DNA of 64,000 nucleotides from Vermamoeba vermiformis (lineage: Eukaryota), in assembly GCA_045837725.1 (NCBI GenBank), contig JBEWZL010000084.1:248001-312000 (forward strand), read 5' to 3'. Under the pieces are notes generated by a model, which saw only the letters and a program-made list of their open reading frames with translations, ran no database searches and was not told where the DNA came from. Positions 18,237 through 58,890 of this stretch are shown here, in pieces (position 1 is the stretch's first letter; every line of letters begins with the position of its first letter). Made by a program: the position numbers and the translations under genes.

Positions 18237-21200
18237 ATGTCCTCGGTCTCTGATAGCGATCTCGACCATTTATTTACTTTTTTTGGTAGTCTGTCTGATT
18301 ATAGTGCCGCAAAAAAGAAAAAAGATCCTGAAGTACGTAATAGATACTATGAAATGTCAAATCCATTTCAATTTTGCGACAATATCTACCTAGCGAAATT
18401 TTTACGATATAAATCGATAACAGTATAATAAATAATATGAAATAATAGTATTTCTGTTTTTTCCGAATATTAGAATTTTTAAACGGTCTATTCAAAGTTG
18501 TGAAAATTGAATAAGCGTAGAATATTTTGTCTACTATTGGCACAATAATTTATATTAATATCTACTTAATGTTATTAACTGCTATGTATTCCAGCTGCAA
18601 GAAATACAAGACAGATGCAACGCACTTTTTTCAAAGGACTACATTATTCATCTGATTGAAAATAATCATTGCCATACGTACCCTCCCGAGATAGTATTCT
18701 TAGGCAGTCATGATGCTAGGGTAATATTAGATTTTTTTTGAATTTTTAAACGAACTTTCTGGTCTCAATGTTGCAATTTCGTTTCTAGGGGACCGAAGGA
18801 GATCCGTTCAACGCAATTCTCAGCCATGAAGAAACAGGTACTTATTTTCCCTATCTATCATATTTCCTCCTGCGGCAAGAAGTGGATCCGGATTTTTAAA
18901 GTTAAATATTTCCTATTTTGGGTTTGTTGCTTTAACATTATTATGCAGCTGTGAAAATGGAAGGAGAAATGCAAAAAAGCAAGAATTGTCGCTGCCGCCA
19001 ACGATTTCCAGGTACGTTTCTTATCCTACCGAAAACTAATATCAGATAACATCTGTGAATCGAATTTAATATTTAATTAATGAGAATTGTTGCATATTCG
19101 TAAATTATGTGTAATAATTGTGTTTTACGGCATTAATTAATGTTGTGGAACAGTTCCCGTGATAATGATCAACAACAAATATGTTTGCCGATCTGCTGGT
19201 CTGTCGGAAGCATTGGAGATCACCTTTAGGGTCAAAAGCGAGAATATAGGGTACTATAATATTACAATACTCTAACGTCCGATAAAATATAATATAATAT
19301 TTGTTGCGGATGTGGCACGTGCTTACAAACTTTTTCGTAGACATTCAGCTTCATCGGTAGCAACTCATCGAGAGTGGGATATATCATGGCTTAAGATGCT
19401 TAATATCAAATACATTTGCGATCTTATGGTCGAAGAGGCTGTTAAAGTGTACGTCATTGAGATTATTTTTTTTTCATGAACCAGATCTGCTTGGCGGGAT
19501 CTAGCAGCAAGCATGAAAATCTTATTAATTATCGTCATTATAGTTTGGGTTTTAGCGTTTGTTCTTCTGAGCGTACAGCTGAAGGCCACGGCAAAGTTTT
19601 TTACGTGTCTGGCATGCCCTATCCTGGTACGCATGAAACTGAAACACAACAAAATTTCTAACTATAATAACATCATATAGGTGTCAGTGCCTATGCCAAC
19701 TTCATAGAGAAGTTACAACGATGTAAGTCTAAGCGTTGCTATAAATAGAACATGATCTGACATATGACAGCTAAAACTGGTCCGTTGAAGATTACGACGG
19801 ATTATTGGAAAAAAGAACAAGCGACTGTTAGTATTTGCAAGCCTTTTACTCTTCCAAAGCCGTATAGCTGGGACCAATTCAAGCAATGGAGTGCTAGTAC
19901 GTGAGACTTAAAATTATTATTATTCATTCGATATTTTTTACCTAACATTTGTGTAGTCGAATTGACGCAAAACTACATGCGCTTCATTTTAAACTTGCTT
20001 CGCGACCCTGACAATACAGCTGGTGTGTTGATTCATTGTATTTCTGGTAAGATTATCTCGTGAAAATCACCTCGGTCGAGTCACTCATTCAATGTATTTA
20101 GGCTGGGACAGAACACCATTGTATATTTCACTACTCCGTATTCTTTTGTGGGCCGACGGTCAGATTCACAAGAACTTGTCAGCCGATCAAATGCTTTATT
20201 TGACGATTGCCTATGATTGGTTACTTTTCGGGTACGACAAAATTTTTTTAGACGCTTCTCGGAATTCAATTTTCTAATTAATATTGCTAGGCACGGCTTG
20301 TCCAAGCGCCTTAACAAGGGCTATCAGATCATGTACTTCTGCTTTTGGATCCTTGATTACCTCCGTGACGACGAGTTCAGTTTCCAATTCAACAAGCACG
20401 ACAAAGTGAACGAAGAGTTCCCTGAGACTATTGAGTACACCTTAGACCGACCTCCCTTGCCCAAGATCAGCAAGAACTATGTCAGCCCGACACTAGACAC
20501 GCACGACATGTTGTTCAAGAAGTACAACGACCCTAGCCTGCTTAAGAAGGCCAATAGCACGGCTGTGTTGAAGTCGCCGAAATCAAAAGACACCAATAGT
20601 GCTCTGACGCGTAACACGACTATTGCTCCGTTCACAAAGGACGAGTCAGTGCGTAACTCCAAGAGTGCCCCATCATCGCCGAGAGAACCTGAGACACCAA
20701 AGTTGGACGCACCAGCTCCGCCGACAGATACACGGGCCTCAAAAAGTTCCAGCAGTGACACGCACTTGGACTCCATTTTAACATCGAGCGAGACATCACA
20801 AATCAGTGAGTTGCAAATCAGAGTTGAAGAGCCAGCTGGTGAAGGGCAAAACAGTCTGTTCAGCAGCGATCTTTCCGACCCAACGAATGAACCGACTGGC
20901 GGAATTATTATTGACACGAGTCATAAAGGCGCTGAGAAGGAATGGGAACAAATCAAAAACAATCAAGACATTACTGACACTCAATCGCAAGTCTCGGAGA
21001 TAACTGGTCCAATTATAGACGACCGTGAAACCGTCACAATGGAACAATGGGAGAAAATGCAGCAAGGAAAGACTAATGGAAACAATACGAATGTCGACAC
21101 CCTATCAGAAGGACCTGTCATTGACGACCGTGAGACTGTTACGATGTCAGAATGGGCTAAAATGCATGAAGCGAAAGACACTTCCACCATTGACACACGT

Positions 21201-22379
21201 TCAGCGATCTCAAGCGATGACGGCAAGAGCCTAACTGTCCCTAATGAAGAGCCGCTACGCACTTCGTTGAACAGCGATCATGCTGCTGTTAACGCCGCCA
21301 GCAACAAGGCCCTGGATGCAATTAACCAGCTCAGCATGGACGACTTTGAGCACATTGAAAACAAGTCAGAGAAGGGCGATCACGTGGTCGATGAGCGCGA
21401 GACGGTGACCATGGAAGAATGGGAAAAGTTGCAGCAAGAAAAGAACAACGCGGATAATGCAGCAGCACAACAAACTAGGAAGAACTCGATTCCCATCAAC
21501 ATCCCTGACAATCTCAGCGACATCAGCTCACCGTTCAGTGACGTTAGTCTCGAGTTCGCGAAGAGCACGACGCCCAAAGCCAATCCGCTCATTGAAAGCT
21601 TGAAACTATCGAACAACTCACCGCGCCTGAGTGAGCAATTAGCTCATCTTGATGACCCGATTTCAAGGAACAGTCTCGCTGATAGTCCACGAAGCAACAA
21701 CAACGACTATTTGCCACGCGACACGAGTTACAAGCGCAAAGATAGCTTAGCCGAGTGGTTGGAATACACGCCTAGCCCTCCTGAGACTATTACAGTAAAA
21801 GTTGAGACTAAGCCTGAACCCGTAGTCCAAGTACCAGTAACGTAAGTGACCGATGCGCACGTGACACGTGTCACTAACTTCAATTCTATTTTTAGCCCTA
21901 CGAAGCCTACTATGGTGCCTAATCATCAAAGTGTAGTCGTAGATGAACGAGGTGATGATAAGTGGCTGGGTTGGGACATTGAAATTGACAGCGAGACGAG
22001 CAGCATGTCGGATCACATTGAAAAACTTGACATTAGTCCGAACGAATTTAATGGAGCCAATCATATTCCTGTGACGTTTTTCATGCACTTTAAGAAGACT
22101 GCGCCTACTGAAAGTCCAAGAAAGAGCAATACCAATGATATCTCCATGAGCGCAAGATCTTCCGATGAAAACGTTGATCCGGAAAAAGAACAAAAAAGAC
22201 GAGAATTGCAAGAGCGATTTGATCGTAAAATGGAGCGCACGCAAAGAATAGAACAAATTAGAGCTAAATTTATGATGTTCTATTTCAAGTGCATTCATAC
22301 AAAGTACTCGTTAGAAAAACGAAATCCGATCCGTTCATCATTTTTGGCTCTTATCAAGAACAATAGCAACCAAATGTAA
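18237..22379 (+). CDS. MTMR14: Myotubularin-related protein 14 (phosphoinositide 3-phosphatase) with a long disordered insert
   Basis: Spliced motifs RCRQRF-PVPVI, YICDLMVE, MPYPG, catalytic HCISGWDRTPL and AYDWLLFGH. A 54-nt intron at 21842-21895 joins ORFs 20217..21845 and 21846..22379. C-terminal RIEQIRAKF. Confidence 0.9.
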
Positions 22380-22444
22380 ATAAAGCCTTCCACTTGTAAT
22401 TAATTAGTGCTATTCTCAAATACTCCGGATTTGTTTCTGACATT

Positions 22445-24422
22445 TTATTTTGCGTTTTTACGAGCACTTATTTCGTTAAGGAACTTGAGACATTGGTTGT
22501 CGTTAAAACACTGTACATTCAGATGTTGTGGGCAACCATTGGCATACAAATATTTAAAACAACTCAGGGCGTTTGCTTCAGCTGTCCACTTATAAGTTGT
22601 TTTATCCCATCGACATCCATTCTCATGCAGGTACTTCAGCATTTGCAAGTAATTGTTCTTCCCTGCATAGTACGTTTCTTTGTGAGTCCAAGGACAGCCA
22701 TTTTCATGCAAATACTTCAAGCATGCAAATCTAGCATTTTTTGCAGCTTCTAACATTGTGTTTGCAGTCCATGGCACACCATACTTGTGAGCTAACATTA
22801 GGCATTGAATATTGCCTTCTGAAGCAGCTGCTGTGCAAACAACAGAGCTGGGCCTGCATCCATTCTTGAGCAAATACTCAAGGATATTTATGTGCCCCAA
22901 TTGTGCAGCCACCATGCACAGGTCATCTTCCAATTTGCAGCCAAGCTTGTGAAGGGCTTGAAATATTTCAAAAGCTCCTGATTCTGCAGCTGTCTTCATA
23001 GCACTTTGATCATAAGTGCCTGTGTAGTGTTAGTAATTTGAGAATCAATTAAAAAAAACTTACATCCAAGACTGATTAGATACTGGAAAGTTTCTGGGTC
23101 ATTGTTTGCTGCAGCCAGATTGCACAATGAAACGTCACTGGTGTCAAGTTTGTACCCTTTGCTTATGATGTACTTTAATCCTTGCAAGTTTCCATTTTCT
23201 ATGACTTTGTGGGCAATAGTCATTCTAGAGTCATTTTCATCCTCATCATAATAGTATCTTGCTAGTGGTGTAAATGTGCCTTCCCAGTTGAATCCATTTT
23301 CATGCAAGTACTTGAGCATCTCTACATTGTGACTAGCATTCATGCAAGCATCGTTTGTTGTAGGCTTGGGACAACCAACTTCAAGCAAGTACTTTATCAT
23401 ATGCAGATGATCAGACACAGCTGCTAATGCATATTCTGTTCCACTCCAGTGGCATCCATGCTCTCGTAAGATTCTACTCAGGTTGTTAATTTCTTCACAG
23501 GCTCATGGTTGGACTTACTTGACACATTCAATGCTGCCAGATGTCACTGCATTATTAATTGAGTTCTTCCAGTAAATCTGAATGTCTGCACCATTTTCCA
23601 GAGCATACTTGAGGCACTCTACACTTCCAGATTCAGCTGCTTTTGCTATTGTCTCATGCCATGCAGCACCCTTTTCATGAGCAAACTTCAAACAGTCCAG
23701 GTGACCTCCAAGTGCAGCTGTTATACAAGAGTCGCCTAGTTCACATCCTGCATCCACTAAATACTTCAAATTTTCCAATCTGCCTGCCCTGGCAGCCTCT
23801 TTACAGAGCCAATGTCGTACCATATGGTTGGATTTACTTTCAAAAATGTACTTCAAGCAATCTATCCCATCCGCTGCAGCTGCACCTACAGCTGTTTCCA
23901 TGTGCCAGTCACAGCCATTCTCATGCAAATACTTCAACGCTGCCAATTGATTGTTCTCCGCTGCTTTTGTTGTAGCCCAGAAGTTACATGGAAATCCATT
24001 TTCGCGCATGTATTTCAAGCAATCTACATGGCCTGGTCCTGCTGCTTCAGGGCAAGCATCGTAGTCTAAAGGGCATCCGTTGTCGTGCAAAAATTTGATG
24101 GTGTCAAGTTGACCTTCAGAAGCAGCTGCTGCCATTGTGTCAGCATCCCATTGTATTCCAATATCGTAGCAGTATTGCAGGCATGATATTGCGCCAATTT
24201 TTGCAAAGTAATCCATTGCAGAAGAATCGGCATCTGACACTGTTTTGAACTTCGGATCGGCCAGCTTGAGAAGCCGCTTATTTGTTGCTCGGAGCATCAT
24301 AGCATCATAGACATGAACGTCGCTTAGTATGTGTGTCCAAACGTCGTTGGGTAAGTCCAGTAGAGTGGTCTAGTGTCAAATCCAGAAAAATGTTAGAACG
24401 TTACAAATTATTCCATTACCAT
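22445..24422 (-). CDS. F-box-like N-terminus plus degenerate ankyrin repeats of the type abundant in amoebal giant viruses
   Basis: ATG-only exon at 24420-24422, then TLLDLPNDVWTHIL. Many AAxxGxLxxLKYLHENGCxW repeats. Two short internal introns (about 23021-23063 and 23473-23518) join three ORFs. Confidence 0.85.
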
Positions 24423-24713
24423 AATCGGAGCACCGAAAAATAATTTTAGAATATTTACTGAGAGTTTTGGGTGTTAATTCGGTGCGTCTAAACCGTAATT
24501 ATGTTCGATCCGTATCTTTTGGTCATTACCTCGTTCATGCTAGGTATTAATCAAACGCCCGTTCGCTGGAATTATTAGATATAATGAGAGTGTTAGTGTG
24601 CAGCGCTAGAATGTCAAAATACTTTTTGTTCCAGCCAGAAAAACACAACACGCCTGGGAATCACATAATTATCTAATATTTGATGTGTAGCATATTTATT
24701 TAATATCCGTAGC

Positions 24714-27700
24714 ATGAAGAGAATTAAATTATTTATTTGGTGCGTGCTGGTCGTGCAGATTTGTTTGGCGCAAGTGCGGGATCCAAGCGAGGCTTCAACT
24801 AAGGCAACAAGTAGTAAATATAGATCGAAGGACCCTAAGTCAGTCGAAGAAGTGCTCTTGTAAGTACTACTATGTCTTGAAGATACGAAAATTAATACAT
24901 TTTTTTCAAAAATCCTCAAATATTTTCTAACGCGGCTAAATGATACAGATAATAGCTTATATACAACAATAAGCATTATTTTATATTCAAAATATTAAAA
25001 TAATATTATTGACGTAATTTTTTTTTGATCAGCGGAATTGACACAACAAAACACGGAGCCCACGAGTGCCATTATAGTGTGGACATAATATATCAAAATG
25101 AACTATTATCAGACGAGAATACGCTGGTACCGCCAATTATATCAGATCTGCACGCGACCGGCGAACGAGATCTCGTTTTCGCGACTCTTAACTCAGCGCA
25201 TTTAATTAATGGTCGAACTGGCGAACTTCAAAGAGGTAAAATTAATATTGTCTATACCATAATTATGCAATCAAACCCTAAACAAAAAATGGATCTGGTC
25301 CAAAATTTTTTTAGTTGAATTTCATTAAGAATTTTTGCTGTATCCTTTCATAGTATACTGATATATTGTAATTTTATAGGACAATGGCCGCTATTATTAG
25401 GCGACACGGATATTTATTCTCAGCCACTTTTGTACGACATTAACGAAGACGGCATTGACGAAATAATTATCACGACAGACAACGGAGAAATAGTGTTTAT
25501 TGACTTATATGGCAATCCTTTAATAGGCCAAGCATTCAAAATACCTAAATTAAGAGTACGCAAAGATTGGTATACGGGTCTGGACACGGATGACGTGGAT
25601 GCGTTTTATTCACTGAAAGAGCACCAAGACAGCGATTCGGCGGATGAGAATAGGGACAATGTAAATAAGGACAGTAAGACTTACGAGGACTTGGAAGATG
25701 AAGGCTTCAAGGATTGGTTGGAACAGCAGCGCGTAAGTAATTTACGACCCATACATTTAGCCATAAATAATTACGCAAATATTTTCGAAAAATTATCCAC
25801 ATTTTCTCTGGCGAAAAACTGCATGAAAATTGTCTTTGGATCTGAGCTAAAAAGACCTCAATTAATCTTCTGTTAATCATTTTAGCGCTATTTCTGCGTT
25901 ATTAATCAAGTATTATCGGTATTAATAATACTGTTATTTTGTACAGCAAGAAATGTTGGAGCTGATCAACACGTTGAAAGACGAACTGACCGAAGAGGGA
26001 ATCAAGAGCTTAGATGTAAGTAATACTTGTATATATACCATATACATTTCATATTGCATTTAAAGAATTATTTAGCGGATCAAGGTCGAGATCCGGATTT
26101 CGACCAAAATTTCAACTTTTTGTCTTTAACAACTACGTATTGATTATTGTTATAGTTATTATTAAGCTCACGCGAGATCAAACATAACGACCAAGACGAG
26201 TTGTTCTATTCAATTCAATACGAGAATTATTTGAAAGAAAATCCAGCGGCAGTCAAAGTCGATGCCAAATATTTGCAGGTTGATGCGCACGTGATGGCGT
26301 CACCGATCATTGCAGATTTAAACAGAAACGGGCAGTATTATTTGATAGTACCGGTCTCGTATTATTTTGACGAGTAAGTAGATCGAACCGCTAAAAAACT
26401 TTCTTGCCAGATCTGATTTAATTTCAAAAGCAAAGCATCCTTCAACACAATACAATATGATAATAATATTAATAATTAATATGGACCAATATAATTCGTC
26501 CAGTTTCATGAAATATTGCAACAAGATCTGGCATTAAATTTTTTCCGTCCAAATTTTCCATACTAAGCGTTAGAATGTTATATACTACTATAGTATCTTA
26601 TTCATCATATCTTTCATATTATAGGTCCGAAGCTAATTCACCGCTCCGTCGCAACGAATTCATCGGAGTGTATCCGAACAGATACATTGCTAGCGGTGTC
26701 GTGGCGTTCAATTTGAAGACAAAAACTATCGCTTGGACTACTCGTAAGTATAATAATAATAATAATATGTATAATGTGATTATTTTCTTATATAACAATT
26801 TGTTGAAATAATTTAATTTTATCGATCCGAAAACAATTTACCGATCCAGATCTTGGCGAAACGATAATCTCCTCGCAAATTCATTTCATGCTATTTAATA
26901 TATAATTATACCAATATTTCCATTTGCGAGTCCATAATTTTACCATATAAGTAAATTTCAGATCTAACTTTTTTTTGGATTAGATCTGGATCTGACCACC
27001 GACAAGACCGAGTACCGCGGCTACATGCTCTCGTCACCAGTCACTGCTGATCTTAACGGTGATGGTCGATTAGAAGTGCTCGTCACAACTGCCGTCGGAT
27101 TCGTTTACGTCCTGGAAGCGGATGGCACCTGGAACAAACAATTTTCACCTGAATCTATGAGCTCTATTTATGCTAGTCCTTTAGTTGATGACTTTAATAA
27201 TGATGGTGCTTTGGGTATGATAATACGTCATAATAATAGGCAAACTCGGAAAACAATATTTGGTTACATCCGGATCTATTTTTACTGAAACAGAACAAAC
27301 CTCCTATCGATCGATTATTAATCAATTTTACATAGATGTGCTCGTAGTAGATGATAAAGGCAATGTCGTAGTGTTTAACGACAAAGGCCACGAAATTTGG
27401 GAAAACACAATTGCAGGCACGACACTCTACGTAAGTCAAAAAAACTAAATTTTCGTTCATGAAACAGCACGATTTTATCAAATTTATTAACGCACTTCGT
27501 TTTAACAGAATCCCATGTCTGGAGACATCAACGGCGACGGAATTTTAGACGTAATTATTTTGACCGAAGAAGGCATCGTATGGGCCTTGTAAGCATCTAT
27601 TTCCATATTAGGAAATGTAAGACTTCATATCAACAACTTTTTTTTATTTAGGCAAGGCAACAACGGTCAGATAATGAAAAATTTCCCTGTCAAATTGGGC

Positions 27701-44202: not shown

Positions 44203-45189
44203 TTAAATGTCATTTTCAGGTACGAATATTGTTGTGTTCGTGTATGCACCTCGAGGCAGTTGGCTTGCCATGACAACAAGTTGCCGAAACTGTTCACAAA
44301 AGTAATCAGCGACGTCAACGGTCTGATCCAATGGCCTGCCATATAATAGTGATATCACAGAGTAACATAAGGGGTAGTATTCTTCTTGTGATTCATCGCC
44401 GTTGTGTTTGTGAGTGAACAGATCGCACCACTGGTTTGTCGAGTAGCTCCATACTGAGGCTTTGAAGTAGTATGGATTTGTTACCAATGGCTTAATCTGA
44501 GTTCTGATGACAATAGGCGCTGCTGAGGGCCCAATGAATATGAACTCTAGTGACGCAGGTAGTCCTGCGAATGGATCTTCATTTCGTGGCTGCTGAGCAC
44601 GACGGCCACGAGTTAGCTGCCTCTCTTTTAGTCTCTTGATATATTCTAAGTGTCTGGCCTCTTCTTGCTCGTGCTGCGTGGTTGATCTGTCGTAAATTGT
44701 AACTTTTGAGCCAATTGCGTCTTCTTTGCTGGGATAGATTCGATCGATATTTACTGCGTTTGGTAGTAATGATACCCTATGATAGTATCTCGACTTCCAA
44801 GGTGATTTCGTGCTCAAAACCGGTTCTAGAAAGTCGCTGCATCCGGAAAATAACGATTTTTGACTTTCATTTTTTAATTCGCCAATTAATTCTTCATCAT
44901 TTTCGTTTTGTTGCAAATATTGCAATTCATCAGCAGTAATAAAATTACTCTTCCAGCGCCACACGTAAAGTTTCTGGTAGCTTACATCCAAACTAAAATT
45001 GGAAAAAGGCTTCGCCACCATATTTAATTGCGGAAGCGATTTCATATCGCAAAAATATTCAATGGATCTCCATATGTCCATAACACTGAGTGGTTGGACG
45101 TCGGTCGATTGATTCATAGATTCGTTTCCAGTACGGAGCTTTTTCGCAAGGGGCTGAGAAGGATTTTCGTCTTCAGTTTTTCTCTTCAT
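44203..45189 (-). CDS. Intronless hypothetical protein with bipartite NLS and degenerate F-box-like segment
   Basis: 328-aa ORF with MKRK...AKKLR and LSVMDIWRSIEYFCDMKSLPQLNMVAKPF. Confidence 0.7.
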   Translation of the reverse strand: MKRKTEDENPSQPLAKKLRTGNESMNQSTDVQPLSVMDIWRSIEYFCDMKSLPQLNMVAKPFSNFSLDVSYQKLYVWRWKSNFITADELQYLQQNENDEELIGELKNESQKSLFSGCSDFLEPVLSTKSPWKSRYYHRVSLLPNAVNIDRIYPSKEDAIGSKVTIYDRSTTQHEQEEARHLEYIKRLKERQLTRGRRAQQPRNEDPFAGLPASLEFIFIGPSAAPIVIRTQIKPLVTNPYYFKASVWSYSTNQWCDLFTHKHNGDESQEEYYPLCYSVISLLYGRPLDQTVDVADYFCEQFRQLVVMASQLPRGAYTNTTIFVPENDI

Positions 45190-45336
45190 TGTGTTATGAC
45201 AAAATGGTCGTGGGTTTACACGTTTTGGTGGTGATCTATCAAAAAAATAAGATTTTCTTCTAATTTATTTTCCTGTTCCTGAACGAACAACCTTTTCGGT
45301 CGAACAATTTATTCCTCTGACTTACAACGTTTAAAT

Positions 45337-46548
45337 TTACCATGCTAAAAGTACGACAAGTTGCGCCGTAATGATAGCCACTGCTAAAACTGCCTCAACA
45401 CATCTGACACTTCTGGCAGCCACCGAAACAATTTTGGCACTCGAGGTTGAAGCGTCAGGCGATCCGGTCGTGGTGGTAACAGGAGTTCCTTTTGGTGCAA
45501 TTGGGAAGGCAATTGGCGTTGTGACAGGACTGGCAACAGGCGGGGCCTTGGGTGCGGTGACTGGAACTGCAACGGGACTGGCAACTGGTGTAGCGACGGG
45601 AGGTGCTTTGGGCACTGTTACGGGAGCGGCTATTGGTGCTGCCACCGGAGTGGCCTTTGGAGCTGCAACAGGTGTAGCGATTGGCACGGCGACTGGAGGA
45701 GCCTTAGGAGCTGTAACAGGAGCAGCGACTGGTGCTGCAATAGGAGAGGACACTGGTACTGCTACTGGGGTGGCCTTTGGAGCTGCCACAGGTGTAGCGA
45801 TTGGAACCGCAACGGGAGGTGCTTTCGGAGCTGTAACAGGGGCAACGACAGGCGTCGCGACAGGAGTGGCTTTAGGTGCTGCAACGGGAACGGCGACAGG
45901 AGGCGCCTTCGGAGCTGTGACAGGAGCTGTGACCGGTGTGGCAACAGGAGGAGCCTTTGGAGTTGTGACAGGAGTGGCGAGGGGAGCAGCGACGGGAGGT
46001 GCCTTTGGAGCAGCGACAGGAGCTGCGGTAGGAGTTGCGGGGATTGGTGGCAGTGTATGTGGAGTTGCAGTATAAGGACAAGCAATGCAGTTAGTATCTC
46101 CTTGCGCTGCGTATTCACCTGAAGTGACTCGAGCAGCACAATCGTTGTAGCAGAGCTGACAGCACGAATAACATTTCTTTTGTTCAGGAGGGGACAGCGG
46201 GGCTATTGTTCGCTTGCAGTCAGTGTCGCTAGTACACGATTGAAGGACCATGCATGGGTAAGTATAGTCAACATTTTCGAAGCCTCCCCAGCCTTGACAA
46301 AAACTCGTGAGATCCAGATTTCGTTTTGGACAGAGTAGTTGCCAAGTGTTGAACACCTGCGAGGCACAAGCAGTGATTGAAACATCTACTGGTCCATATG
46401 CACAGACTTTTGCAGGAATGGCGTACGTGTTGGCAGTTGAATTACCGCACAGGGAATTACGGATCCCGGTTGTTGGTTGACACGTTCGATCTGCTGCTAT
46501 AACTGCACTAATAAATAGTAGCGTGACTAATAATACTATTTCGCGCAT
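45337..46548 (-). CDS. Secreted Cys-rich domain plus Pro/Ala/Thr/Val/Lys mucin-like stalk and probable GPI-anchor signal
   Basis: Signal peptide MREIVLLVTLLFISAVIA, a Cys-rich N-domain, APKAPPVA/TPVA repeats, then SSA and a hydrophobic C-terminus. Confidence 0.82.
   Translation of the reverse strand: MREIVLLVTLLFISAVIAADRTCQPTTGIRNSLCGNSTANTYAIPAKVCAYGPVDVSITACASQVFNTWQLLCPKRNLDLTSFCQGWGGFENVDYTYPCMVLQSCTSDTDCKRTIAPLSPPEQKKCYSCCQLCYNDCAARVTSGEYAAQGDTNCIACPYTATPHTLPPIPATPTAAPVAAPKAPPVAAPLATPVTTPKAPPVATPVTAPVTAPKAPPVAVPVAAPKATPVATPVVAPVTAPKAPPVAVPIATPVAAPKATPVAVPVSSPIAAPVAAPVTAPKAPPVAVPIATPVAAPKATPVAAPIAAPVTVPKAPPVATPVASPVAVPVTAPKAPPVASPVTTPIAFPIAPKGTPVTTTTGSPDASTSSAKIVSVAARSVRCVEAVLAVAIITAQLVVLLAW
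45470..46035 (-). repeat. Coding tandem repeat of 12-bp (tetrapeptide xP[V/I/K]x) units
   Basis: Repeated APVA/TPVT/APKA/PPVA peptides with synonymous divergence. Confidence 0.85.
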
Positions 46549-47075
46549 ATTTGTATCTTGATTCGTGGTGATAGCGACGGATCCTGAAACTACACTGATT
46601 TTACCTGAACTGTCCCAGTTTTTAGCCACCTGCAACCGAATCTTCACCGTCTCATTCGAAAATCAACCTGTAGATTTTGTGTACTATTAGACAACAGACT
46701 AACCAATGACGGGTAATTTACCTTGAAATTGGTATCAGATCTTGCTGGCAGATCTTTGTTCGTCTTTGAACGGTTTGTGCGCGTGGAAACTCGTGCCTTG
46801 GAGTTATCACAGGCCTCGGCTAATTGATATCGACCTTAGACTTTTTGTGACGAGACTTGTGTCGCACATTTGAAGCATGACATGGGCAATTGGAGCACAA
46901 AATCTCGCCTCGCATTCTTTAGTACGCTCTATGTTACTCTCGGGTTAGAAACACTTGTAATGTGGTGACAACTACATCAACGGCAATATTTGTGCATCTA
47001 GAATACTTTAACTTGAGATCTAAAACGGGGTTAACGGATGCGGATTCAGCAAAAACTTGAGAATAATTTATATAT

Positions 47076-52066: not shown

Positions 52067-55000
52067 ATGTAGGTAACAAGAAAGATAGTATTTAGATTAA
52101 TAAACTAATCATAAACAGGAGGAAGCGTTTTTCTTAATTGCAACGCTTTATCTCTTTATATGTTCGTTAAAATTAACATCAGGTACGTACTATAAAGAAA
52201 TGTCAAATAAATAAATAAACAACGATCGCAAATCCAAATCTGAAAATAAAATCAGTTTAGAATCGCTCCAAATTGCGATCATTATCCGCAATTAAAATTA
52301 AATTATTTTTAGGCTGCGAGTCGCCATTGATTCTGAATACCCCGCGTAACAATGCTGGATTAACCGAAGCTGATCTGTAAAATTTATTACTCTGGCGGAG
52401 TTTCAGCTTCCAACAATTTTGCTTCTTTGTCTTCAGTCGAAGTTTTTGATCCACAAACGAACACTATCAGCACTTTCGAGTTACCCGTCGCAAGGAGAAA
52501 TATTTTCAGCACGAAGATTGACTCGTTAGTTCTATTTGTGGGAGGAATAGAAATATCACGTGGCATGCAGCGAAATTACAACAAAATTGATGTCTACGAT
52601 ACAAATACGCAATTGATATGGACAATTGATGTGCCCAGTGTGCACATCCCTTCGGCGAGAATAGAAGTAGTGGGAACAAAGCTAGTTTTTAGTCAACCGT
52701 ATTCATTGGCCGTCACTATATTCGATATATTAACGAATACGACAACCCAAGTGCCGTCTCCGCAAAACAACGGATTTCGGCCTGAGGCAACGGCTTCAAA
52801 CGGAACTCATGTTTTCTTTGTTCAAAACGCTGCTACGAACTCAATGTACATCCTCGACGTGGCGACCAATCAATGGACACCGTTCAATGTGAACATTCAG
52901 ATCCAACAACAAGTGACGATTTTCATGACAATGATCAGTCCTCAAATTCTCGTCATTATTGAACCGAGAAGATTGACACGAATAGATATGAACTTCCAAA
53001 TTCCTAGAATTCGAGTTCTGAACTTTAATGGCGTGCGCACTTCACACACAGTGTCCGGAGACAGATTGTACTTGCTCAACAGAAATTCTATTATTGTTTA
53101 TACTGCCAACGGCAATTTAGTCGAGTACGCGTTAGGAAGTACATTCCCCAACGAAGCAACAGATTCAGTTATTTATAACAACATACTCTACGTATCATCA
53201 ACATCGACCTTTGGCGTTCCATCTGGCACCAGATTCAATTTGGACATGTTATTTCAGCCAGTGCCAGTCACGTGGGACTCGTATTACAGCCAATCACTAT
53301 TCGCCGAAAGAGGATATATATTCTACCTAGTCAATACGAAGATAATGCACGTCCACTTGCGAACTCAACAATCTGGCGAGATAGAGCACCCTGATATTGC
53401 TTACTACGTTCACTACAGGAGAGCAGTCGTCGGCAACAAATTGTTGATCACGCTCGAACAAGTCTACGGAATATTCAATTTTGAAACGGAGACTTGGTCA
53501 ATTTATTCCTTGCCTTATCGACTACAGTATCATGTGCCGTTGGTTTCTGGCCGATACGTTTTATTCAGCCACCGTTTATACCAAGAATTGCCGTTATTTG
53601 ACATCGAGTTAAATCAATGGAGCATAATTCAAGTGAATACAAGTTCAACACAAAAGCTTATCACCGGTGACAGAATAGTGACACTTGCCAATCTTGAAGG
53701 CATCGGAATCTACGATATACCTTCAAAACAATGGACTCAAGTGTTAGAAGGCGACTTTCTAATTGACAAACCAGCGATAGTTTTTGGCTCAAAAATAGTT
53801 TTTCCTGCACTATCTGTCAGAGACCTTTCAAGAAAGCTCGTTTGCATTTACGACATTGATACGAAGGATATTAATTGCGTGCAGTCTCCAGCATCATTTT
53901 TTTGGAAGGAACACGCCCAGAAAGTACGAGACTACGTCGTTTTCAATAGCCAAAGAACAGTCAATCGGTATACTATACAAAGCTTTTATGCGCTGAATGT
54001 TGTATCACTCGAATGGACTTCTTTTGATTTGCCGCCAATATTGGAAGAATATCGATCGATGCAAGTGGCCGTGCAACAAGATGTCATTTATGTATCTCAA
54101 GTTGGTAGAATTGACGCAATTGATATGACAACTTTGACACTATTTTCTCTCAACGTACCAATGGGACAACCAAAAGCAATAGCGTCATACGGCAGCAAAG
54201 TTATTTTTATCAGCGAGTCAACGAATAATCAAGGACAAATAGCAGTTTTGTTTGAAGCATCGCAGAGGACTTGGACGAGTATAATCGTTAATGCAAGAAA
54301 CGATATTCTGGTGACACAAAATTTTATTGCGACGTACGTCCATAACGGCTTTAATTCAATGGAGTTCCCAGCAATGCTGAACAGAATAACCAACGAAGAA
54401 AGATTCGTCGGACAGTCCGTGGAATTTACGGTCAATACTGTTGGCATTGGACTGACATCACAGTGGATTTACGGAACTAGATCACGTCTTGCCAATGGGC
54501 CTTCATTGTCACTGACCAACTTGACCGAACAAAATGCCGGAACTTATGTCATTCAGATCACGGACAAATGTCAAAATGTCATGCGCCAGGCAGCGACTCT
54601 CCAAGTTCACGGCGCTCCGTCATTTGCAGAAGATCTAACTGAATCGATTATGCTGTGCGACACAGCTTCGCAGCTCCGAGCCAATGTCGTCGGCAAACTG
54701 ACTCAAGTTCAATGGGAGCTCGACAATCAGCTGTTAGAGGTCACGGACCGAGCCTACTTGAACGTGTCCAAGGATAAGCTCTCGTTGACGTGTAACTCCG
54801 AGCATCGCCTTTGTGCCATCGCCAGCAACCCTGCAGGCCAAGCGCGCAGTTGCTCAACAGTTCAGCTCCGATCACTTGACTCCATTTTCGATGGACCTCG
54901 CCCAGCGTCAGCCCAAGCGACCTACTTCACGGACTCTGTTGTTGATCTTGTTGTAGACTTGCTTCACGAAGATTGCACCGGGCACGTGTGGCTTTTGAAC

Positions 55001-56607
55001 GGAAGAGAAGTTGGCGAGCAGCAGCCAAGAAGCAGCGCACTCTCAGTGACAATTTCACAATTGGTGACAGCCAACGAGTACAAAGTTCGCGCCTTTTGTG
55101 GCAACAGCGAGCTTGAATCAAGTGTCTTCGCATTTGAGGCAGCACGAGTCTCGTCTCTCACGCCTGAAGGTGTTGCAGGAATAGTAGTTGGTGCATTTGT
55201 GTTGCTCGTTGGAGCTATTGTGACGGGCATACTTGTTCAACGACGTCTCAAGAGGAGCAAGCAACACGAGATCGAGTTAGAGAACTTGCTCAATGAAGCC
55301 AAATCCGAGAACTACAAGCCCAAAGACGGAGTTTCGATCATTCATACAACGACTTGGGAGTGGTCCCCTAGCGATGGGTACACGTACCGACCAATCGACA
55401 ACTTCCCGTGCGACATTGACACGTCACTGTTGAAGTATTCGTTGAAGCACGCAGTTGATATTGACGTGTGGATTCAAGGCGACATCGTTTTTTCACCGAA
55501 AGAGAAGAGCAGTGCAAAAGGCAAGCAAGAAAGACTTTTGAACGGGCTTCAAATTGACGTGTACGTGCCACAATCTCCCAAGTACGAGATCAAAGTAGAG
55601 CCTGCAAATTTCACCCTTCAAAGCAACAAACAAGTGCGAGTAACAGTGTCATCGATGATGCGAATGACAGCGAAGAGCAACGTCTGTTTGATCGTCGTTT
55701 GTGAACGGCAAATGATTTATTCGGTCCTCGAGTTCAAGATTGAAAGCAAGCCGTCAATGTGGATCGATATTGAAGAGATCAAAATGACAGGAGATTTCCT
55801 TGGTGGAGGAGGGTATGTCAAAAGTGACACGTGTCAAATCCGTATTAACTTTTTTCCGGTAGATTTGGAGCTGTAACGAGAGGTGTTTATCGAGGACAAG
55901 ACGTAGCTGTCAAAAAGCTACTATTGCAACACATGCTTGATGATGTCTTGCACGAATTCGAACATGAAATAACACTAATGAAGAGCTTGCATCATCCGAA
56001 CATCGTACAATTTGTTGGTGCTTCAAGCGTTCATGAAAACTTGGCCATCATTATCGAGTACGCACCTCTTGGCAGTCTCGCCAGCGTCATGAAAAAGCAA
56101 AAATTGTCGTTCTCGATGAAAACTACAGCGTTATTTGAGACTGCCAAGGCACTCCAGTTCTTGCACGCGAACGGAATAATTCATCGTGACATCAAGCCTC
56201 AAAACATTCTCGTCTTTTCACTCGAACAAAGAACGCCGGTGCACGTTAAACTGACTGATTTTGGCACCGCAAGGTTCATCACAGAGAACGCGACAAATGT
56301 CACAAAGAACGTCGGAACATTTGCGTACATGGCGCCAGAATCGCTCGGAAAGAACCCACGCATTGATAAGAGCGCAGATGTATACAGTTTTGCTATATTA
56401 ATGTGGGAAGTGCTTTACGAACAGCTTCCGTTCGAGGAATTTCAGTGGCAATCAGATCTCGAAAAACACGTGCTTGAAGGAAAGCGACTGCAGTTGGATC
56501 CGCTACCGAACGACCAGCTAGTGAGGCTTATAGAAGAATGTTGGCATCCAGACCCATCACAAAGGCCTTCTATGACTGCTGTAGCTCAGCGACTTGCAGA
56601 TCTGTAA
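52067..56607 (+). CDS. Receptor TKL kinase: Kelch-like propeller, Ig-like domains, TM and kinase; 5' end apparently disrupted
   Basis: Kelch motif YSGG...SSVEVFDPQTN. Ig-like segments (QNAGTYVIQI, LCAIASNPAG). TM GVAGIVVGAFVLLVGAIVTGILV. Kinase LGGGG|FGAV, VAVKKL, HRDIKPQN, DFG and YMAPE. Intron 55813-55862. Confidence 0.85.
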
Positions 56608-56742
56608 AAATTTGCGGATTTGGATACGACTAAACAACCGACAATTTTGCTCCTTTTTATAGATTTGCTCAAACATAAAACAATAGTACGTATGAATGAC
56701 ATTGTAATACTAATGATTCTAATGAGATTTAGTTTGTACAGC

Positions 56743-58635
56743 ATGATCCGAACTAACTTCGAAGCGGATGTGGTGAATAACAAAAATCCATTTGACCTAA
56801 TTCCGAACGAAACAATCGAGTACCATATATTCACTAATATTCCGTTCAATAATTGGATTGTGGTGCTATCACTAGTGTGCAAACGATGGATGCAGATCAG
56901 CGCCAAAGCCACCGTCTCTCCTCGGCAAATTTCTTTTGAACAAGAGAATGGTTTTATCGTTCGCACGGCAGTTTTTGGAGTGGCTAGGTATAGGCCAACA
57001 ATATTGTATTTTGGAATTCCAGTGGAGCTACGGAATATTATGTTGATCGTTACTGCAGCCAATTGCATAGACACCCTGATATTACGTAAAATAATATTAA
57101 GAAATCAATATCATTCAATGGAACAAATCACTACCTTGTGCTTATCCGCTTGTGAAGGAGTGGCTGCAAGCGATATTTTCAAACTATTTCCCAATCTCAA
57201 ACGATTGCAAGTCAATTACATAAATATAAACGATGAAAGATTGAATCAATTGGATGAATTGGCACTTATCGACGTCGATCGAAAAGATTTGATAGAGATT
57301 TCTGATGCAATTACAATTCCAAAAATTACGATTGTTTACAGCAAAGTCCGCATGGTTGTTCAGCGCATTAATGGTGTCACTAAAGTGTACAATGGAGATG
57401 AAATTTCTTATGAGGACTATTTACGTTACTTTGGCGAGACTAAATTATCCCGAACGTTGCGGGAAAAAGAGTTCGAAGTTGCTGCTCAATTGTTGGACTC
57501 TCAAACGATCGAATATGATGCCTTCCTTCAGGAGTACTACAAGCGAGTGCATATATTTCCAGGAAAAATTCATTTTAATTCCTTGGTTTGCGATTATCAT
57601 AAGGCTTTATTTTATTGTGGTGGGGATGAGCCTTACTTAAATGCTTGGAAGTTGCTGGCTCGTACAAATAAAATCTCGGTACCTCATGTTTGGCTTAGAA
57701 TGATCGGTTTGGTGCATGAAAAGTGTTTTGACGAAGCACTGAACGAGTTCAAAAATTGGTCTGGCTACACGGATCCGAAAGAATGCGAGTCTGACGAAAT
57801 GAGGACGGCTTTTTTTGCACTAACTACAGCGCCATATATTACTGTTGATCATCTTAAGCAGCCTGGTGTAAATGAGCGAGCACGTGCAATTATGAACAAG
57901 ACGTACGACATCGCGAGTTACATTGAAACTACGGACCAATTCAAAAAGATCGTTTTCTTACGTGACGACTGGTCCGATGTTGTAACTGAAACATGTCGCA
58001 GAAATGAAGAGCTATTTTGGGCGATGGTCGATCAAGGCTGCAAAATACCTTTGAGCTACACTGTGGCCGGTGACTTTTCACTTAAAGTAATTGACAAGTT
58101 GATAGAAAGGAAACTGTTCACACCAGATGAAATTGCTTTCAAATGCACTCAAGCCCTTTTGAAAAAAGTTGTCCGAAAATATCGCATTGATATGACAATA
58201 GAAAAAAAAAATACATCGTTGTTCAATTATTGGATAAATCGTGGTGGCCACACGGAGGATTTCATACTTGAATATAAGCACCTGCTTAATCATTTTGACA
58301 GCAGTGGCAACAGTCCGTTATTGTTGCTATTGACGGTACAGTATCCGCGCATGGATTTGATAAAAACATTGTTAAATTATGGAGCGGATCCAACGAAACA
58401 TGATCCCCGTTCTTTGTCTCCGTTGGCTACTGTTATCACAAGTGAATGGTTACATATAGACCAGAAGTTAACAATAATCCAGTGGTTGGTGGATCACGGT
58501 GGATCCGTCAATGCTCCGTGCATGTATCAGGGTAGGATGTGCTCGCCCTTAATGATTGCTATTCTAAATGACAGCTATCGTCCTTTGCACGATCTACTCA
58601 TCTCACATGGGGCACTTGCGTTCTATCAGGACTGA
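56743..58635 (+). CDS. Intronless F-box, LRR-like and C-terminal ankyrin protein (paralog 1; start uncertain)
   Basis: FDLIPNETIEYHIF...SLVCKRW, IFKLFPNLKRL, SGNSPLL...LLNYGADP and SPLMIA. Confidence 0.8.
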   Translation: MIRTNFEADVVNNKNPFDLIPNETIEYHIFTNIPFNNWIVVLSLVCKRWMQISAKATVSPRQISFEQENGFIVRTAVFGVARYRPTILYFGIPVELRNIMLIVTAANCIDTLILRKIILRNQYHSMEQITTLCLSACEGVAASDIFKLFPNLKRLQVNYININDERLNQLDELALIDVDRKDLIEISDAITIPKITIVYSKVRMVVQRINGVTKVYNGDEISYEDYLRYFGETKLSRTLREKEFEVAAQLLDSQTIEYDAFLQEYYKRVHIFPGKIHFNSLVCDYHKALFYCGGDEPYLNAWKLLARTNKISVPHVWLRMIGLVHEKCFDEALNEFKNWSGYTDPKECESDEMRTAFFALTTAPYITVDHLKQPGVNERARAIMNKTYDIASYIETTDQFKKIVFLRDDWSDVVTETCRRNEELFWAMVDQGCKIPLSYTVAGDFSLKVIDKLIERKLFTPDEIAFKCTQALLKKVVRKYRIDMTIEKKNTSLFNYWINRGGHTEDFILEYKHLLNHFDSSGNSPLLLLLTVQYPRMDLIKTLLNYGADPTKHDPRSLSPLATVITSEWLHIDQKLTIIQWLVDHGGSVNAPCMYQGRMCSPLMIAILNDSYRPLHDLLISHGALAFYQD

Positions 58636-58890
58636 ATAATTTGCGACCTTACAACAATGATCAATACATTACAAGAATACGGTTACTAACACTTTGCTTA
58701 ATAATAAATCTTATATACTATTTAAAATATAATTCTCTTGCTGATCGAGTAAAAACTTTTCGTTCAATCGATCTGAACGCGCAAATTTGCAGCTAAAAAA
58801 AACTGCAGTTTCGTTAGTTTCCTAAATTTATTTTAGCAACAAGATAACATTGGTAATAGCAGGCGATTAATAGACTACAAGTGCTCAACA

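Follow-up and report, generated by a model that had tools for sequence, protein, structure and literature searches.

In the genome of the amoeba Vermamoeba vermiformis, one F-box and ankyrin-repeat gene is nearly free of CpG in its interior. What removed the CpG dinucleotides from this gene? The window (the whole 64-kb stretch of DNA analysed here) holds 2964 CG dinucleotides, which corresponds to an observed/expected ratio (o/e) of 1.16 at a GC content of 0.40. The affected gene lies on the minus strand and is composed of the following parts.

22445 to 24422, minus strand: F-box and ankyrin-repeat gene, 612 amino acids, four exons; spliced from window coordinates it is 1839 nt long, with an open frame and GT..AG introns.
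24422-24420 (ATG only), 24369-23519, 23473-23064 and 23019-22445 (including the stop codon), minus strand: exons of the ankyrin gene; the first exon (3 nt) is predicted from the sequence alone.
24370 to 24419, minus strand: predicted intron of 50 nt, GTAATG..AG, with a CTAAC branch-like site and one CpG, outside the desert.
23474 to 23518, minus strand: intron of 45 nt, GTAAGT..AG, with a TTAAC branch-like site and no CpG, inside the desert.
23020 to 23063, minus strand: intron of 44 nt, GTAAGT..AG, with a TACTAAC branch-like site and no CpG, inside the desert.

The open reading frame and the splice sites of all three introns are intact, as the original prediction had held for the frame. Each of the three large exons matches ankyrin families in Pfam (Ank_4, Ank_2, Ank_3, Ank_5 and Ank, with E-values down to 2.8e-22), and the protein has approximately 17 ankyrin motif units. 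An F-box (PF00646) is matched at residues 3-38 with 18.7 bits and an E-value of 0.0017, under the gathering score of 20.5 bits. Internal DNA repeats of the gene are 61-78% identical over 37-54 nt. Viral-like or multicopy genes had been suggested as the target; within the 64-kb window the gene has no paralogue, and tblastn and blastn of the spliced gene match only itself.

The CpG depletion is real and far beyond chance. It is composed of a core and a weaker shoulder, and is bordered by a coding end and an intergenic region that have kept their CpGs.

22674 to 23732, no strand: core CpG desert, 3 CG in 1059 bp, o/e 0.07; it runs from the 3' end of the second of the four exons through the third exon and two introns into the last exon, of which it takes the 5' two-thirds.
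23733 to 24369, minus strand: 5' shoulder with partial CpG depletion; CDS 1-639 has 20 CpG against 34.5 +/- 4.6 expected (P = 0.001).
22445 to 22673, minus strand: 3' end of the CDS with near-normal CpG, 7 against 9.7 +/- 2.3 expected (P = 0.17).
24423 to 24715, no strand: intergenic region of approximately 290 bp between the ankyrin gene and a divergent gene that starts at approximately 24716; CpG-rich, with a 1-kb o/e of 1.4-1.5.

The CG dinucleotides lie, in order, at 22673, 23133, 23352, 23465 and 23733, with none between these. The original prediction had counted approximately three CG in 1 kb, near 23133, 23352 and 23465, and these are exactly the three sites found in 22681-23700 (o/e 0.07, GC 0.41); it had also seen none from 22681 to about 23130, and the count gives none in 22681-23132. 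The 241 1-kb windows outside the gene have a mean o/e of 1.20 (sd 0.18), and none falls below 0.74, which agrees with the earlier description of CG-rich surroundings. Against these windows the desert has a z-score of -6.3. The longest CpG-free gaps of the window (460, 268 and 219 bp) are all in the desert, and the next is 167 bp. Similarly, the 20 300-bp windows with two or fewer CpG all start within 22601-23551. With 50.1 CpG expected, the Poisson probability of three or fewer is 4e-18. The TG and CA dinucleotides, which had been described as abundant, reach o/e values of 1.53 and 1.83 in the desert vs 1.03 and 1.06 in the remaining window.

The profile of the depletion along the gene is bell-shaped. 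Per 120 nt of CDS, the numbers of CpG are, in order, 8, 3, 3, 4, 2, 1, 0, 1, 1, 1, 0, 0, 0, 2, 2 and 3. The desert had been called sharp, which is true only in part, as its 5' edge is a gradient where recovery starts at approximately 23733. The depletion is limited to the gene interior, and CpGs are kept in the 5' intergenic region and at both gene ends, which is a gene-body pattern. The intergenic region may serve as a promoter.

The two introns in the desert had been described as CpG-free, and together they have no CpG in 89 nt; such a zero occurs in 1.5% of 2348 comparable 89-nt windows outside ORFs. The third intron, which the earlier description had missed, has its single CpG outside the desert. 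Away from CpG contexts, the gene uses codons much as the host does, with C at 57% of the NNY sites that precede a base other than G, and G at 21% of other fourfold sites. The CpG-free introns and this codon usage indicate that the decay took place in an intron-bearing genome, and to that extent they support the earlier claim that it took place in the present one.

Correction for codon and amino acid usage had been named as a check that could overturn the depletion, and the depletion survives it. Expected CpG numbers come from 5000 resamplings in which synonymous codons were drawn according to the codon usage in the window and the protein was kept fixed. CDS 640-1608 has 3 CpG vs 46.9 +/- 5.4 expected, and the lowest of the 5000 resamplings has 27. 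Only the CpG context is affected, on both strands, and there is no general codon shift. In the desert, Y-ending codons have C and T at 2:60 when G follows and at 61:46 when another base does (Fisher P = 8e-14); in the reference ORFs, C makes up 46% in both contexts. The 5' shoulder is intermediate, with 30% C at NNY|G sites vs 55% C before non-G bases. NCG codons are 0/71 in the desert vs 22% in the reference ORFs, and G-ending GTN/GGN/CTN codons are 21% in the desert vs 18% in the reference. The repeats of the protein show the same context dependence. At the Y|G sites of LKYLHENG-type repeats, the first two repeats (CDS 274-378) have C at 3/4, and from CDS 436 onward T stands at 25/25, and the His codon of the motif is CAC before A (2/2) and CAT before G. 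In aligned DNA copies of one repeat family (D1), the 5' copies have CG where the desert copies carry CA. The relatives found, all at 50% identity or less, are too distant to polarise the direction of these changes. In the 64 kb examined, all 23 reference ORFs have CpG o/e values of 0.71-1.59. CpG is normal (o/e 1.13-1.26) in the window's three other ORFs with ankyrin repeats, so coding for such repeats is not the cause of the depletion.

The desert is also found in independent data. One sequencing run (X10) yields a 233-nt contig identical to 23157-23389, and a water metagenome (X4) yields contigs of approximately 200 nt that are 95-99% alike to the gene. Because independent data sets carry the same sequence, the desert is not an assembly artefact. 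Among the differences listed for the metagenome and relative runs, two fall in the desert (23313 and 23324), neither of them in a CpG context.

The original prediction had also proposed that the gene is silenced. RNA data bear on this claim; they also cover the gene on the 3' side.

20217 to 22379, plus strand: convergent neighbour gene with normal CpG (two ORFs, o/e 1.03 and 1.26); it ends 65 bp from the stop codon of the ankyrin gene.

X6 is an RNA assembly of a close relative and has spliced contigs for both neighbouring genes. One of these confirms a 54-nt GT..AG intron at 21842-21895 in the convergent neighbour; the other, near the divergent gene, ends at 24859, and its loose end matches from 25033 onward. 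In the ankyrin gene, X6 has 210 nt of exon 2 at a depth of 3.5, similar to that of the neighbours (5.4 for the neighbouring gene). The gene is therefore probably transcribed in the close relative, and with its intact frame and introns it looks functional, so silencing finds no support and is, if anything, contradicted. A second set of RNA reads (X21) covers the convergent neighbour at 20217-22379 and has a depth of 0 on the ankyrin gene. This says nothing on silencing, because these reads are only 90-95% alike to the region and the gene upstream of the ankyrin gene likewise has a depth of 0.

The ankyrin gene belongs to a type that is shared with giant viruses. Like the F-box/ankyrin proteins of Bodo saltans virus and of many amoebal genomes, it has an LKYLHENGCPW-like repeat consensus (alignment A1) and an N-terminal F-box-like segment, and it has hundreds of homologues on contigs of giant-virus metagenome-assembled genomes. 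This type had been described as typical of amoebal giant viruses, and 125 of 171 pattern matches on viral contigs do encode relatives, many on GVMAG contigs, at up to 47% identity. The best named viral matches are proteins of Bodo saltans virus (43%, 36% and 36%). In the V. vermiformis genome, 70 of the 185 genes with a best match in giant viruses are reported to be ankyrin genes, and 68 of these are nearest to Bodo saltans virus (PMC7125106). In GC content, number of introns and frequency of ankyrin genes, the DNA analysed here is similar to the published V. vermiformis genome (PMC7125106).

A recent viral origin, in contrast, finds no support. The best identities are 46% among the longer proteins and 50% among the similar-length ones of the protein database, and at most 44% on metagenome contigs. 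No relative above 50% identity, viral or cellular, was found in the protein database, the metagenome contigs or the viral contigs, and single-protein scans of the viral contigs with each of three exons gave no close relative. Cellular homologues (Bathycoccus, Pythium and Physarum transcripts) have scores similar to those of the viral homologues. Viral and cellular relatives both lie at 35-50% identity, and the gene is not in a cluster of viral genes. Unlike the viral copies, this one has three spliceosomal introns. Together with the lack of a relative above 50%, these introns indicate a resident member of a cellular family and not a recent insertion; the neighbouring genes have ordinary eukaryotic domains and introns. 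The affected gene is a fast-evolving, lineage-specific member of the F-box/ankyrin family.

We consider it probable that the desert was caused by CG methylation of the gene interior over a long time and by the deamination that followed. Whether in today's organism or in recent ancestors of it, the interior would long have borne symmetric CG-context 5-methylcytosine. Spontaneous deamination of this base would then have replaced almost all CpG by TpG or CpA on the two strands, in introns as much as in exons, with purifying selection preserving the open frame and the splicing signals. Both gene ends and the CpG-rich intergenic region shared at the 5' side would have been spared, giving the bell-shaped profile.

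Sparse, repressive CG methylation of viral-ancestry genes and endogenised giant viruses is reported in Acanthamoeba castellanii and Amoebidium (Sarre et al. 2024, 2025; Blais et al. 2025). In A. castellanii, 1.3% mCG is reported, with 2.4% of genes methylated and enriched for viral ancestry (PMC12344493). A single affected gene among approximately two dozen ORFs fits such a sparse pattern. As in Acanthamoeba and Amoebidium, where a few percent of genes are affected, the genome is essentially without a CpG deficit, a rare giant-virus-type locus is singled out, and the effect is CG-specific. Methylation was measured in those organisms; the evidence here is a mutational footprint. In addition, the methylated genes of A. 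castellanii are described as silent, methylated at the promoter as well and clustered in viral insertions, and gene-body methylation is described as lacking (PMC12344493). The ankyrin gene, in contrast, is single, intron-bearing and intact, and has ordinary neighbours, a CpG-rich 5' region and probable transcription in a relative. By analogy, this difference from silent, promoter-methylated, clustered genes counts as evidence against methylation. The main text of the Acanthamoeba and Amoebidium papers has no mention of ankyrin, CpG depletion or deamination scars. Among the article texts searched, none describes a CpG-depletion scar on a gene of this kind in amoebae.

CpG o/e serves as a measure of past germline methylation, and footprints of gene-body methylation are seen in it in invertebrates and plants (related papers: PMC8857923, PMC2970541). 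The ankyrin gene resembles these cases in that depletion affects the transcribed interior, the promoter and ends are spared, and the gene is intact and probably expressed. Gene-body methylation in these groups differs in that it extends to a large fraction of the genes, most of them conserved housekeeping genes; here one of approximately 24 ORF sets in 64 kb is affected, and the gene is lineage-specific. A mark on the body of a single gene would differ both from the silencing in Acanthamoeba, which includes the promoter, and from the methylation of housekeeping gene bodies in animals and plants.

Methylation acting in the past only would leave the same footprint. The lineage could have formerly methylated the gene and since lost the mark, at this locus or altogether, with CpG regained slowly. 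The apparent function and probable transcription of the gene agree with this, as does a window o/e above 1, which shows that there is no broad methylation, and 5-methylcytosine is reported to be lost frequently among eukaryotes (PMC12344493). However, the core is near saturation and has no visible recovery, and wild relatives carry the sequence at 95-99% similarity. A lost mark is an unlikely account, which shares its cause with continuing methylation and differs in timing only. We judge it similarly improbable that the composition was imported, with the central part or the whole gene coming from a CpG-poor donor such as a giant virus or, through gene conversion, a paralogue in a methylated repeat region. 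The giant-virus homologues are often CpG-poor (median o/e 0.70, some 0.11-0.25, for the 47 of 77 loci covered), and 41/47 have an o/e below that of their own flanks. DNA matches to viral or metagenomic homologues (70-80% over approximately 110-135 nt) occur only in the CpG-poor part (CDS 653-783 and 1458-1693), and the depletion does not follow the gene's ends. Against a donor stand the distance of every relative found, in the exon-wise scans too, the two CpG-free introns of host type, the host-like codon usage and a 5' edge that is a gradient with no junction. Moreover, the long residence that the introns and usage imply should have restored CpG toward the genome o/e of 1.16 unless it was continually removed, and a donor that was a methylated paralogue would still make methylation the cause.

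Selection against CpG in the gene, as an escape from methylation-dependent silencing or for an mRNA-level reason, would account for depletion that is complete at synonymous sites under a conserved protein. Of 43 codons tested for a change from NCG to NCA, 21 end in A; 55% is predicted under deamination and 40% under proportional avoidance, and the count is compatible with both. Yet the two introns lack CpG as well, the 23 reference ORFs show no comparable avoidance, and the graded profile is hard to derive from selection on the transcript. To our knowledge, no CpG-sensing mRNA pathway exists outside vertebrates. Selection is very unlikely. Chance, amino acid composition, classical RIP and assembly artefact together have a negligible probability. 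Cys, His, Ala and Gly codons are frequent in the family motif and add C and G without adding CpG, and in AT-rich viral contigs the o/e of the family is usually under that of the flanks; even so, the resampling, the Poisson test and the independent runs refute chance, composition and artefact. Classical RIP prefers CpA, which it changes to TpA. The locus resembles fungal RIP, or CpG-targeted hypermutation of repeats, in its locus-restricted C-to-T change in sequence that is repetitive internally and at the family level. RIP is rejected, as CA is in excess and TA low, the indices point in the wrong direction (TpA/ApT 0.60; (CpA+TpG)/(ApC+GpT) 1.94; negative by the usual thresholds), and the window holds no duplicated DNA partner.

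If methylation is confirmed as the cause, the gene would be a further example of an already known kind, the sparse methylation of viral-type genes, and targeted 5-methylcytosine on virus-related families would extend to another lineage. The marking could then persist until nearly all CpG is erased without destroying the gene, a point that matters for the question whether silencing always goes with the mark. As a proxy for past methylation, CpG o/e costs little and needs nothing but sequence, and here it singles out one giant-virus-type gene in a CpG-rich genome. This suggests a practical screen, where isolated CpG deserts in protist assemblies would point to methylation targets before any methylome exists.

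A more specific form of the methylation reading is unlikely. It would have an expressed, functional gene carry heavy, body-only CG methylation in an otherwise unmethylated genome, as a mark on a single gene of a host family that its giant viruses have too, with homology or small RNAs as a possible guide. No inverted repeat pairs able to feed small RNAs are present in 21500-25500, and no structured RNA of an Rfam family is present in 20000-27000. The 22 window ORFs scanned with Pfam include no methyltransferase domain. A neighbouring ORF encodes a cytochrome P450 reductase, which has one match at 94% and whose best named matches are in Arcella, insects and Capsaspora at 47-48%.

The F-box/ankyrin gene at 22445-24422 (minus strand) contains a CpG-depleted core, the desert, at 22674-23732 (3 CG in 1059 bp). 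The gene structure was modelled from sequence, with a tiny first exon that lacks read support.

Modelled structure of the F-box/ankyrin gene
24422-24420, minus strand: exon 1, ATG only, 3 nt (sequence model)
between 24420 and 24369, minus strand: intron 1, 50 nt (GT..AG)
24369-23519, minus strand: exon 2 (sequence model)
between 23519 and 23473, minus strand: intron 2, 45 nt (GT..AG)
23473-23064, minus strand: exon 3 (sequence model)
between 23064 and 23019, minus strand: intron 3, 44 nt (GT..AG)
23019-22445, minus strand: exon 4 (sequence model)

Each of the three introns has GT..AG ends and a branch motif of CTAAC or TTAAC type. The predicted product is 612 aa and begins with an F-box-like segment (18.7 bits, slightly below the Pfam cut-off of 20.5). 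Downstream of this segment, all three large exons encode ankyrin repeats (Pfam), and the product has ~17 units of an LKYLHENG-type motif.

By dinucleotide count, CG occurs at 22673, 23133, 23352, 23465 and 23733 and nowhere between; the three internal positions named in the original prediction match exactly. The observed/expected ratio (o/e) of CpG at 22681-23700 is 0.07 (GC 0.41), and the entire 64-kb window has 2964 CpG at o/e 1.16 (GC 0.40). The 1-kb windows outside the gene (n=241) have a mean o/e of 1.20 (sd 0.18, minimum 0.74), and the desert is 6.3 sd under them. Ranked by length, the window's top three CpG-free gaps (460, 268 and 219 bp) fall in the desert; the fourth is 167 bp. Across the whole window, 20 of the 20 300-bp windows with at most 2 CpG begin within 22601-23551. 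The Poisson probability of 3 or fewer CpG given 50.1 is 4e-18. TG and CA o/e are 1.53 and 1.83 in the desert vs 1.03 and 1.06 in the remaining window. The desert is not an assembly artefact, because a 233-nt contig of the independent run X10 is identical to 23157-23389 and ~200-nt contigs of the water metagenome X4 are 95-99% alike across most of the stretch, desert included. Water metagenomes contain close relatives of the source organism.

A codon table was built from 23 of the 32 stop-to-stop ORFs with 150 aa or more, leaving out the ankyrin gene's 3 ORFs and 6 that overlapped a better ORF in another frame or on the opposite strand. Expected CpG was derived from 5000 synonymous-codon resamplings of the ankyrin protein.

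CpG in the spliced coding sequence (CDS, 5' to 3')
CDS 1-639 (5' part): observed 20, expected 34.5 +/- 4.6, P = 0.001
CDS 640-1608 (desert): observed 3, expected 46.9 +/- 5.4, lowest resampling 27
CDS 1609-1836 (3' part): observed 7, expected 9.7 +/- 2.3, P = 0.17

Codon and amino-acid correction was the check set by the original prediction, and the desert still lies outside expectation (3 vs 46.9 +/- 5.4). CpG o/e is 0.71-1.59 in the 23 reference ORFs. It is 1.13, 1.17 and 1.26 in the window's three other ankyrin-bearing ORFs, so ankyrin coding itself is not the cause of the depletion. Large plus-strand ORFs lie in series at 52364-60900. The first (1170 aa) has Kelch motifs at its N terminus; the next two (675 and 687 aa) carry ankyrin repeats at the C terminus, and one of this pair also has an F-box-like segment. 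Their CpG is normal (o/e 1.13-1.26), and F-box/ankyrin content alone therefore does not draw depletion.

The loss of CpG is strictly context-bound. At codons ending in a pyrimidine (Y), C:T in the desert is 2:60 before G vs 61:46 before other bases (Fisher P = 8e-14); reference ORFs have 46% C at these codons, equal before G and non-G. NCG codons number 0 of 71 in the desert (reference, 22%). Thus, both strands were hit, without a general shift in codon usage; GTN, GGN and CTN codons end in G at 21% in the desert and 18% in the reference. The repeat motif shows this in register: its Y sites before G are C in 3 of 4 cases in repeats one and two (CDS 274-378), and all 25 such sites from CDS 436 onward are T. 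The motif's His codon reads CAC where A follows (2 of 2) and CAT where G follows. In the gene's aligned DNA repeat family, CG in 5' copies is aligned to CA in desert copies. The two introns within the desert have 0 CpG in 89 nt, a value seen in 1.5% of 2348 non-ORF windows of similar size and GC. The process therefore also hit non-coding sequence, in an intron-bearing genome. There is good support for the proposal that a giant-virus-type ankyrin gene acquired, within this genome, a mutational scar specific to CpG. Classical RIP is ruled out by a TpA/ApT of 0.60 and a (CpA+TpG)/(ApC+GpT) of 1.94, compared with the RIP index thresholds.

The CpG counts per 120 nt of CDS (8,3,3,4,2,1,0,1,1,1,0,0,0,2,2,3) trace a bell-shaped trough whose centre is the gene body. 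Outside the trough lie the final ~230 nt of the CDS and the 5' intergenic region, which is rich in CpG (o/e 1.4-1.5). The desert had been described as sharp, which does not hold on the graded 5' side.

To our knowledge, deamination of 5-methylcytosine under symmetric CG methylation is the sole well-established process of CpG-specific loss that acts on both strands, in introns as well as exons, and leaves other contexts untouched. For this reason, we lean towards reading the desert as a trace of prolonged CG methylation, past or present, in the interior of the gene. Deamination would have removed CpG from both strands of the methylated interior, whether exon or intron. An o/e of 0.07 implies almost three e-foldings of CpG loss. 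Because an unconstrained 1-kb frame would close over such time, the gene appears to have been under purifying selection throughout. The RNA assembly X6, from a close relative, has a 210-nt exon-2 contig that crosses no intron; X6 contains RNA, since it has spliced contigs for both neighbouring genes. This contig and purifying selection argue against simple permanent silencing, and the proposed silencing is not supported for a gene whose reading frame was kept open. The gene is probably expressed. In the RNA run X21, which shares its species label with the probable source, reads are 90-95% alike at 21500-22084, with 0 of 56 at 99% or above, so the label spans strains or species that have clearly diverged.

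Giant viruses do commonly encode this repeat type. Viral contigs queried with a profile gave 125 relatives of 171 pattern matches, many on giant-virus MAGs, at identities up to 47%, and Bodo saltans virus proteins are the best of the named matches (43%). Cellular homologues (Bathycoccus, Pythium, Physarum transcripts and unnamed metagenomic proteins) are likewise at 35-50%, and single-protein scans of viral contigs, exon by exon, found no close relative for any exon. There is therefore no sign of recent viral insertion, and a recent viral origin finds no support. Nor does multicopy status, as no paralogue exists within the window. It is conceivable that the CpG scarcity was brought in from a CpG-poor donor, and viral homologues are often poorer in CpG than the sequence around them (median o/e 0.70 vs 0.88, with 41 of 47 loci lower; 47 of 77 loci compared, L026-L075 minus three duplicates). 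Such an import would have to account for the host-type introns within the desert, its host-like codon usage away from CpG and its graded edge.

A few viral homologues in these 47 of 77 loci have o/e near 0.1-0.25, and viral-contig homologues are consistently GC-richer than their flanks (e.g. 0.34 vs 0.23). DNA-level matches to viral and metagenomic homologues (110 HSPs from 42 of 102 loci, 70-80% over ~110-135 nt) are confined to two repeats of the CpG-poor part, CDS 653-783 and 1458-1693. None fall in the CpG-retaining 5' third, despite good motif copies there. They likely reflect a shared way of encoding the conserved motif, with codons that lean towards AT and form no CpG. Two of the named homologues, the aphid (Uroleucon formosanum) proteins P0002 and P0294, join the same ankyrin type to transposase/THAP or BTB domains, which hints either at contaminated assemblies or at mobile elements also carrying this repeat type in animals.

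Methylation, judged from sequence pattern, is the best available account of the scar and a reasonably probable one. The CG methylome of A. castellanii is described as sparse (1.3% mCG, 2.4% of genes methylated), with methylated genes silent and enriched for viral ancestry (PMC12344493). Similar enrichment is described in Amoebidium and several algae and plants (PMC12344493, PMC12210455). The ankyrin locus, here as a mutational footprint alone, shares three features with this picture: rarity, CG specificity and membership of a family shared with viruses. Unlike the A. castellanii methylated genes, it has a spared promoter, is intact, is probably expressed and lies outside any viral cluster. The shape of the depletion resembles animal and plant gene-body methylation, but only 1 of ~two dozen ORF sets is affected, and it is a fast-evolving gene. 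Text searches of the amoeba and Amoebidium methylation papers gave no mention of ankyrin or CpG-depletion scars, and we found no report, supplements aside, of such a scar on such a gene in amoebae. If the methylation reading is true, the locus is a further case of a known phenomenon, a methylation-type scar on a virus-shared gene; what would then call for explanation is why the methylation is limited to the gene body when the gene seems to work.

The flanking genes are ordinary eukaryotic ones. The convergent neighbour ends 65 bp from the ankyrin stop codon, and its 54-nt intron is confirmed by a spliced contig. The divergent neighbour starts ~290 bp upstream. At 24716-25062 it opens with a signal-peptide-like exon; an X6 RNA contig ends at 24859 with a loose end matching 25033 onward, implying a 173-nt intron at 24860-25032. 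Its ORF at 25319-25876 matches no Pfam family. Other window genes encode cytochrome P450 reductase, PI3/PI4-kinase, gamma-glutamyltranspeptidase and amino-acid permease, and there are also Kelch ORFs and more of the F-box/ankyrin kind. In its GC content, its intron number and its many Bodo-saltans-virus-like ankyrin genes, the source bears a resemblance, no more, to the published Vermamoeba vermiformis (PMC7125106). The GC-richest stretch of the window, 45001-46700 (up to 0.55), has the lowest CpG o/e outside the desert (0.74-0.82) and long open frames on both strands (45335-46075 and 45451-46122, plus; 45337-46662, minus), the longest without a Pfam match. The P450 reductase ORF suggests a protist with few sampled relatives: it has one 94% match, to an unnamed protein, and its best named matches are at 47-48% (Arcella, insects, Capsaspora).
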